Assembly (NCBI GenBank): GCA_964016885.1
Contig: OZ024756.1
Span: forward strand, 16,120,001 to 16,184,000
Length of the DNA stretch: 64,000 nucleotides
Origin: Eledone cirrhosa
Lineage: Eukaryota
Direction of reading: 5' to 3'
Position numbers and translations under genes: made by a program. The notes beneath the pieces were generated by a model. The model searched no databases. It worked only from the letters and a program-made list of their open reading frames with translations, and was not told where the DNA came from. Position 1 is the stretch's first letter. Each line of letters opens with the position of its first letter. Shown here in pieces: positions 39,349 to 39,403 of this stretch.

Positions 39349-39403
39349 ACTGCCTGAAGAGGTCACAGCCAATGAGGGCTGTCACCGAAATATATATAGC
39401 AGT
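39349..39403 (+). ncRNA. Type I hammerhead ribozyme motif (class 1)
   Basis: ACUGC-CUGAAGA-[GGU C ACAGCC aaugag GGCUGU C ACC]-GAA-AUAUAUAU-A/GCAGU. Canonical core, G10.1-C11.1 pair, 5-bp stem I, cleavage at 39398/39399. Confidence 0.85.

Follow-up and report, generated by a model that had tools for sequence, protein, structure and literature searches.

Penelope-like elements (PLEs) are already known to carry hammerheads with a long stem II, a palindromic stem III and cleavage as dimers. As described in PMC4209133, PLE hammerheads cleave weakly and as dimers only, and their helix II, with 7–8 bp, is larger than usual, which corrects an earlier note on this DNA that had called stem II usually short; the same source describes a bulge in the middle of a helix in the hammerhead of the Drosophila virilis PLE. 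The role of these motifs is held to be unclear, as they are nearly always kept by the elements and cleave poorly alone (PMC8557442, PMC11167929), and a hammerhead from a Poseidon PLE is reported to cleave only after addition of its protein (PMC11167929). The Hydra clade of PLEs is defined by RWK and DKT motifs, a CxCX5C linker, CxxC/CxH and (TA)n targeting, and it includes the Octopus bimaculoides member Hydra-1_Obim (Craig et al. 2021, PMC8557442). For Octopus vulgaris, 30 recently active Penelope families have been reported in a text that contains neither the word 'hammerhead' nor the word 'ribozyme' (PMC13282606); consequently, related sequences may well sit in repeat libraries with the feature unnoted. 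We found no description of the stem II mismatch treated here in the literature on hammerheads and PLEs, within a coverage that excludes the variants of Lünse 2017.

We analysed a window of 64,000 nucleotides of the Eledone cirrhosa genome, in which the earlier note had pointed to three hammerheads with a full core, a correctly registered stem I and a C-C mismatch at the fourth position of stem II. All three are complete type I hammerhead motifs, predicted from their sequence to be self-cutting, and each contains the entire core (C3 U4 G5 A6 N7 G8 A9 / G12 A13 A14 A15.1 / U16.1 H17). Motif 1, recognized by sequence and fold, occupies 39349–39403 (+) and consists of a stem I of 5 bp, the core segment 39354–39360, a stem II of 3 bp, a C·C mismatch and 6 bp, the GAA, and a stem III that is an 8-nt palindrome at 39390–39397, with the predicted cut at 39398/39399, after A39398. 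Motif 2 lies at 46770–46825 (-), with the predicted cut after A46775, and motif 3, whose stem I has 8 bp, at 7619–7684 (-), with the predicted cut after A7627. In each of them a lower stem II of 3 bp is followed by a 1x1 C·C mismatch at pair 4 (C39364·C39383, C46810·C46790 and C7666·C7642, respectively) and then by the upper stem. Stem III is AUAUAUAU in motifs 1 and 2 and the near-palindrome AUAUGUAU in motif 3, as had been proposed, and is compatible with dimers. A fourth class member, from another family and broken, is found at 58895–58952 (-) without the 3' strand of stem II and the GAA. Overall, the window contains 12 core matches versus 0.74 expected from shuffles.

The fold of motif 1 had a z score of -2.95 relative to 200 shuffles, none of which was as good; the corresponding values are -2.55 with 4/200 for motif 2 and -0.99 with 35/200 for motif 3. 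When two copies of motif 1 are folded together, the two palindromes are predicted to pair over 8 bp, with an energy of -40.8 kcal/mol versus -33.6 kcal/mol for two monomers. The lowest-energy fold of motif 2 is off register, and the dimer predicted for motif 3 is not a hammerhead dimer. A comparison with Rfam, which the earlier note had named, did not place motif 1: the search with a 151-nt stretch returned four matches at E ≤10 and no hammerhead among them. A scan of the whole window with Rfam was dominated by (TA)n microRNA models among the 150 of 747 matches listed.

Each motif lies inside the 5'-truncated 3' end of a different PLE family. The family A segment at 39234–39464 (+) is the pseudo-LTR part of the 3' end, stops at (TA)n and is 94–95% identical with other copies; the family B segment at 46725–46886 (-) has TA-rich runs on either side and belongs to a sister family of A; and the family C segment spans 7568–7706 (-). 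The flanks had been described as not obviously homologous, and those of motifs 1 and 2 do align barely, with 23 and 120 of 1000 shuffles scoring equally well, but the two hammerheads are 83–85% identical and thus related rather than independent, and the endonucleases of their carrier families are 70–72% identical. A first look at the genome gave 1,804 candidates for family A, 694 for family B and 30 for family C, whose upstream part gave 1,046, and for a 37-mer from family B there are 2,178 exact matches. Copies have (TA)n at the end and variable 5' ends, often with an inverted partial copy. Their 3' ends cluster 50–60 nt past the predicted cut, the modal bin holding 27/51 ends in family A, 35/41 in family B and 19/36 in family C. 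This clustering is common to the three families despite dissimilar flanks, and families A and C have a second 3' end, with a longer tail, near 140–160 nt after the predicted cut.

Walking upstream, we found a GIY-YIG domain about 1.05–1.5 kb before the hammerhead in families A, B and C. In family A the hammerhead follows the end of the endonuclease by about 1.05–1.1 kb, and long copies show the order MEKLA-RWK-DKT-TMGS-SNHP-WYN-CNCR-YIG-CKLC-TCRH over about 2.6 kb. The hammerhead also precedes the ATG by about 255 nt in 3/15 family A loci. At one locus the ORF motifs are found in order along about 2.6 kb and the hammerhead stands 257 nt 5' of the ATG, and at another place two same-strand hammerheads 2.76 kb apart enclose RT motifs (G000:C1:214178825 and 214181581). 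Long copies can hold the hammerhead in both pseudo-LTRs, where it lies in the sense orientation of an element coding for RT and GIY-YIG. The C-terminal GIY-YIG with the CxCX5C linker and CxxC/CxH around E and N was seen in families A, B, C/D and F, with a weak Pfam match (E 0.0077); RWK and DKT were recovered in family A, families B and C being known without their 5' ends. A 3' tail, tandem and inverted partial copies and insertion at (TA)n were seen as well, and all are traits of the Hydra clade. By these motifs the carriers are Hydra-clade PLEs, the proteins having been likened to reference Hydra elements by eye, and the proposal of a structural subclass common to several carrier families is borne out. 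A search with a longer protein returned only two relatives. The ORF of the longer copies rules out a short, SINE-like element whose 5' end is fixed, and a non-LTR retrozyme, made of non-coding tandem units of 200–400 bp with a hammerhead each, was ruled out by the coding PLE carriers.

Other elements and a gene share the window. Two further families of hammerheads with a short stem II, and with ACAUUAGUGU or ACAUGU as stem III, are found at 44022–44045 (-), 49773–49796 (-), 46355–46379 (-) and 46554–46578 (+), the last two being inverted relative to each other, as is typical of PLE ends. The region 48494–48943 (+) holds the C-terminal fragment of an endonuclease from another Hydra-type PLE family with 46,215 first-look genome candidates; no class hammerhead was linked to this family in 19/20 loci, and its hammerhead may be an atypical variant. 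Broken LINE ORFs occupy 25659–28651 (+), with endonuclease, RT and PHD finger, and 29057–31457 (-), with a second RT-like remnant. A death-effector-domain gene, which we take to be DEDD or a gene like it, extends over 22371–1108 (-) with exons near 22330–21615, 2745–2490 and 1524–1350; its product matches the Pfam families DED (E 9e-4) and TRADD-like_N (E 4e-14). Motif 3 is sense within the inferred 19-kb intron of this gene.

To describe the class genome-wide we used a pattern that joins the core with an 8-nt AURYRYAU stem III and leaves pair 4 unspecified. The pattern has 113,257 matches in the genome versus 288 in a reversed control; these are matches rather than elements, inverted copies being counted twice and matches with variable gaps possibly overlapping. 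The class is therefore real and far more abundant than the three motifs from which it was recognized. Pair 4 is C·C in 79,039 matches (69.8%), C·U in 24,609 (21.7%; the 100 listed belong mostly to one family group), U·Y in 3,105 (2.7%) and C-G in 461 (0.4%), with about 6,000 matches unclassed. The mismatch is thus conserved genome-wide as C opposite a pyrimidine (C·Y, 103,648/113,257), whereas conservation as C·C, the form expected from the three motifs, applies to the 69.8% only. The C-G and U·Y examples listed come from many scattered families, the distribution that decay of inserted copies would give.

An evenly spaced sample of 111 loci of 10 kb (1.11 Mb) was scanned for hammerheads in general and yielded 115, versus 0, 1 and 0 in three shuffles; 42 of the 115 are class members. 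Pair 4 is formed in 4/42 of these, and pairs 2, 3, 5, 6 and 7 in 39–41/42. Hammerheads of the sample that fall into other classes form pair 4 in 19/21 distinct rows, two further rows having been set aside as members of the class whose palindrome has mutated. A same-strand partner of the same family within the 10-kb locus was found for 0/42 class matches and an inverted partner for 18/42, and most copies consequently cannot pair in cis. All hammerhead classes together occur at about 100 per Mb in these loci, which extrapolates to about 300,000 genome-wide, a figure inflated by tandem arrays. Retrozyme-like tandem arrays were seen in L171 (6619–9719), L176 (8749–9682) and L240 (278–9566); their units measure about 310 and 420 bp, and each contains a type I hammerhead with ACGCGU or ACUAGU as stem III. 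A metagenome scan with the pattern, covering 4 of 64 parts, gave 0/119 loci that passed the stem I and stem II tests and has little bearing on other animals.

Clustering of 250 class matches gave 34 groups, in a set that is biased because 20 of its loci were hand-picked from pattern lists, partly those for C·C and C·U; the representatives of the 34 groups comprise 25 C·C, 2 C·U and 7 singletons of other states. Among 32 distinct stems, Watson-Crick pairs are formed by 31 at pair 3 (shuffle mean 12.7; 31 was reached in 0/10,000 shuffles), by 30 at pair 6 (15.1) and by 25 at pair 7 (11.9), and by 2 at pair 4 versus a shuffle mean of 1.9, although such column shuffles overstate significance because the families are related and phylogeny is ignored. 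Pair 3 uses U-A, A-U and G-C. Stems I and II are in register and covary, kinship again being ignored, and the stem pairs include 26 G·U versus 9 A·C, as would be expected if the sense RNA is what folds. The claim that stem II varies yet stays paired holds across the families, with two corrections for the window: GAU/AUC in motif 2 is a minority allele, 22/26 intact position-ordered family copies having GGU/AUC with a G·U pair, and the third pair above the mismatch in motif 3 varies among copies. The mismatch keeps its place although the stem II segments span 20–52 nt. Endonucleases linked to the class share 43–48% identity when A/B, C and F are compared with one another. Only three deep lineages (A/B, C/D and F) have a linked endonuclease, in a weak grouping (83/87, with an open branch) outside which falls L432, a possible class carrier with a single copy, at a distance of 2.1 kb. 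When 14 contigs from a second organism and 4,560 raw reads from a further one were compared with family A, we found changes in the loop and a change from G-C to G·U at pair 1, and no change at the two mismatch Cs among the 40 of 64 rows listed.

The feature that is likely under selection is thus a 5' C that is invariant and faces a pyrimidine, because the adjoining pairs covary across families with about 43%-identical endonucleases while pair 4 stays unpaired; this agrees with the suggestion that the mismatch behaves as if selected. We are nearly certain of the identity of the carriers, the size of the class and the covariation around the invariant C·Y mismatch. The mismatch likely marks a functional contact point, as judged from the sequences.

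The explanation that we favor, and to which we give an even chance as a whole, is that these are PLE pseudo-LTR hammerheads predicted to cut only as pairs, in which the unpaired C would serve as a handle for the RT-endonuclease. The mismatch would very probably have arisen once and been kept by selection on the retrotransposing RNA. By analogy with known PLE biology, the full element would be transcribed from the upstream pseudo-LTR into an RNA with two hammerheads; these would pair through the 8-nt palindromes of their stems III and so cleave the RNA or mark its ends, and what reverse transcription into (TA)n leaves behind would for the most part be short, 5'-truncated ends, often accompanied by an inverted copy. 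The three copies in the window are probably inert passengers; the state of most genomic copies as single truncated ends and the sense position of motif 3 in an intron fit an inactive monomer. The weakest step, which we rate slightly below an even chance, is that the PLE protein reads the mismatch. Recognition by a protein is favored because the 5' C is fixed, the 3' base is C or U and the RNA has no invariant partner, and because it is in line with the dependence of the Poseidon hammerhead on its protein (PMC11167929). The same system counts against a handle, insertion in vitro being unimpaired by hammerhead mutants (PMC11167929), and the explanation as a whole is opposed by the off-register fold of motif 2, the non-hammerhead dimer of motif 3 and the 0/42 sampled class matches with a same-strand partner. 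In its most specific form, which we regard as rather unlikely, C10.4·Y11.4 would be the handle by which a Hydra PLE protein binds and activates its own pair of ribozymes, and about 100,000 copies would be silent without that protein.

The main rival to protein recognition is packing within the RNA itself, in which the C·Y pair would narrow the long stem II, or put a kink in it, where stem I runs alongside, or would make a backbone or metal-mediated contact, in place of the contact between loops 1 and 2 of canonical hammerheads. This is a sequence-independent form of the tertiary contact proposed in the earlier note; the base-specific form of that idea found no support, since the stem I and flanking positions of the 32 stems contain no invariant base, the best being U at position 1.7 with 22/32. 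The location of the mismatch 3 bp from the core, near the end of a canonical 4-bp stem II with its tertiary loop (PMC7229834, PMC3088659), and its fixed place next to stem II segments of such different lengths speak for packing. The prevalence of U1.7 could be read in the same direction, but it matches the AT-rich background and is not independent across families, stem I is the same in the C·U family as in the C·C families, and an invariant partner base is missing. We consider packing possible but less likely than recognition by the protein.

Three other readings have lower standing. The mismatch could merely weaken stem II so that the RNA refolds, from monomer to dimer or for the passage of RT. 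Its cost, which in each of the three motifs is about 6.3–6.4 kcal/mol when compared with a C-G pair, agrees with this, yet any mismatch at any place would serve, while here the place and the 5' base are fixed, which makes weakening improbable. The reason could also lie in the DNA, as a promoter or integration signal of the pseudo-LTR or in folding of the cDNA strand, with the RNA mismatch as a by-product. The hammerhead about 255 nt 5' of the ATG would be in the presumed promoter region, but both bases keep their structural register although the loops differ greatly in length, and the excess of G·U over A·C favors the fold of the sense RNA, so that a DNA-level cause appears very improbable. 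Equally hard to credit, and already disfavored, is a neutral ancestral accident retained since its repair needs a transversion: a single origin is probable and families A and B are sisters, yet pair 3 has undergone double transversions among elements whose endonucleases are about 43% identical, while a change of the 5' C to U is seen only at the level of decay (2.7%).

A non-catalytic base that stays invariant amid swapping pairs provides a precise mutation for distinguishing protein assistance from RNA packing. If the handle proposed above is real, C10.4·Y11.4 would make this a natural ribozyme whose gating by a protein depends on a single nucleotide, and the purpose of PLE hammerheads could be tested directly; sense copies in introns would be among those silent without the protein. 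The pattern also supplies a descriptor for a missed class with about 113,000 matches, Rfam being blind to motif 1.

The closest described relatives are the hammerheads of Hydra PLEs in Craig et al. 2021 (PMC8557442), which are similar in clade motifs, (TA)n insertion, sense orientation near the 3' end and an extended palindromic stem III. They differ in that the 26 Hydra rows of file S2 have a 9–10-nt ACNN..NNGU stem III, as opposed to the 8-nt AURYRYAU here, and list no internal mismatch in stem II, although the descriptor used there may miss such stems, whereas the class described here has C·Y at pair 4. Hydra PLEs also tend, though not strictly, to be shorter than 3 kb (PMC8557442), in contrast to about 3.9 kb, estimated from motif spacing, for family A with its 1-kb 3' UTR. 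Non-LTR retrozymes share the type I architecture and a very high copy number (PMC7229834; bioRxiv 10.64898/2026.07.22.740005), with 126,247 such hammerheads reported for axolotl; they are described as non-coding tandem repeats with contacts between loops 1 and 2, while the present class consists of truncated ends of coding PLEs, 42/42 sampled matches being without a same-strand partner. The metazoan PLE hammerheads of Cervera and de la Peña 2014 (PMC4209133) resemble ours in the type I form with an intact core, a long helix II, a short helix I and a palindromic helix III, and in their occurrence as mostly dispersed single copies and inverted pairs. The minimal hammerheads of that study have an additional base, unpaired, between A9 and 10.1, which is absent here, the direct register pairing better among the class matches listed, and its alignment of 56 rows, inspected by eye, has a mismatch at the fourth pair in two rows (C·A and U·U), with no C·C and no cephalopods. 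The hammerheads of Lünse, Weinberg and Breaker 2017, as related in PMC6765202, are likewise similar in their short palindromic stem III and association with PLEs, and in cleavage as dimers, which for the present class is a prediction. Our results leave the established association of hammerheads with PLEs as it was, and the class is a variant within that system.
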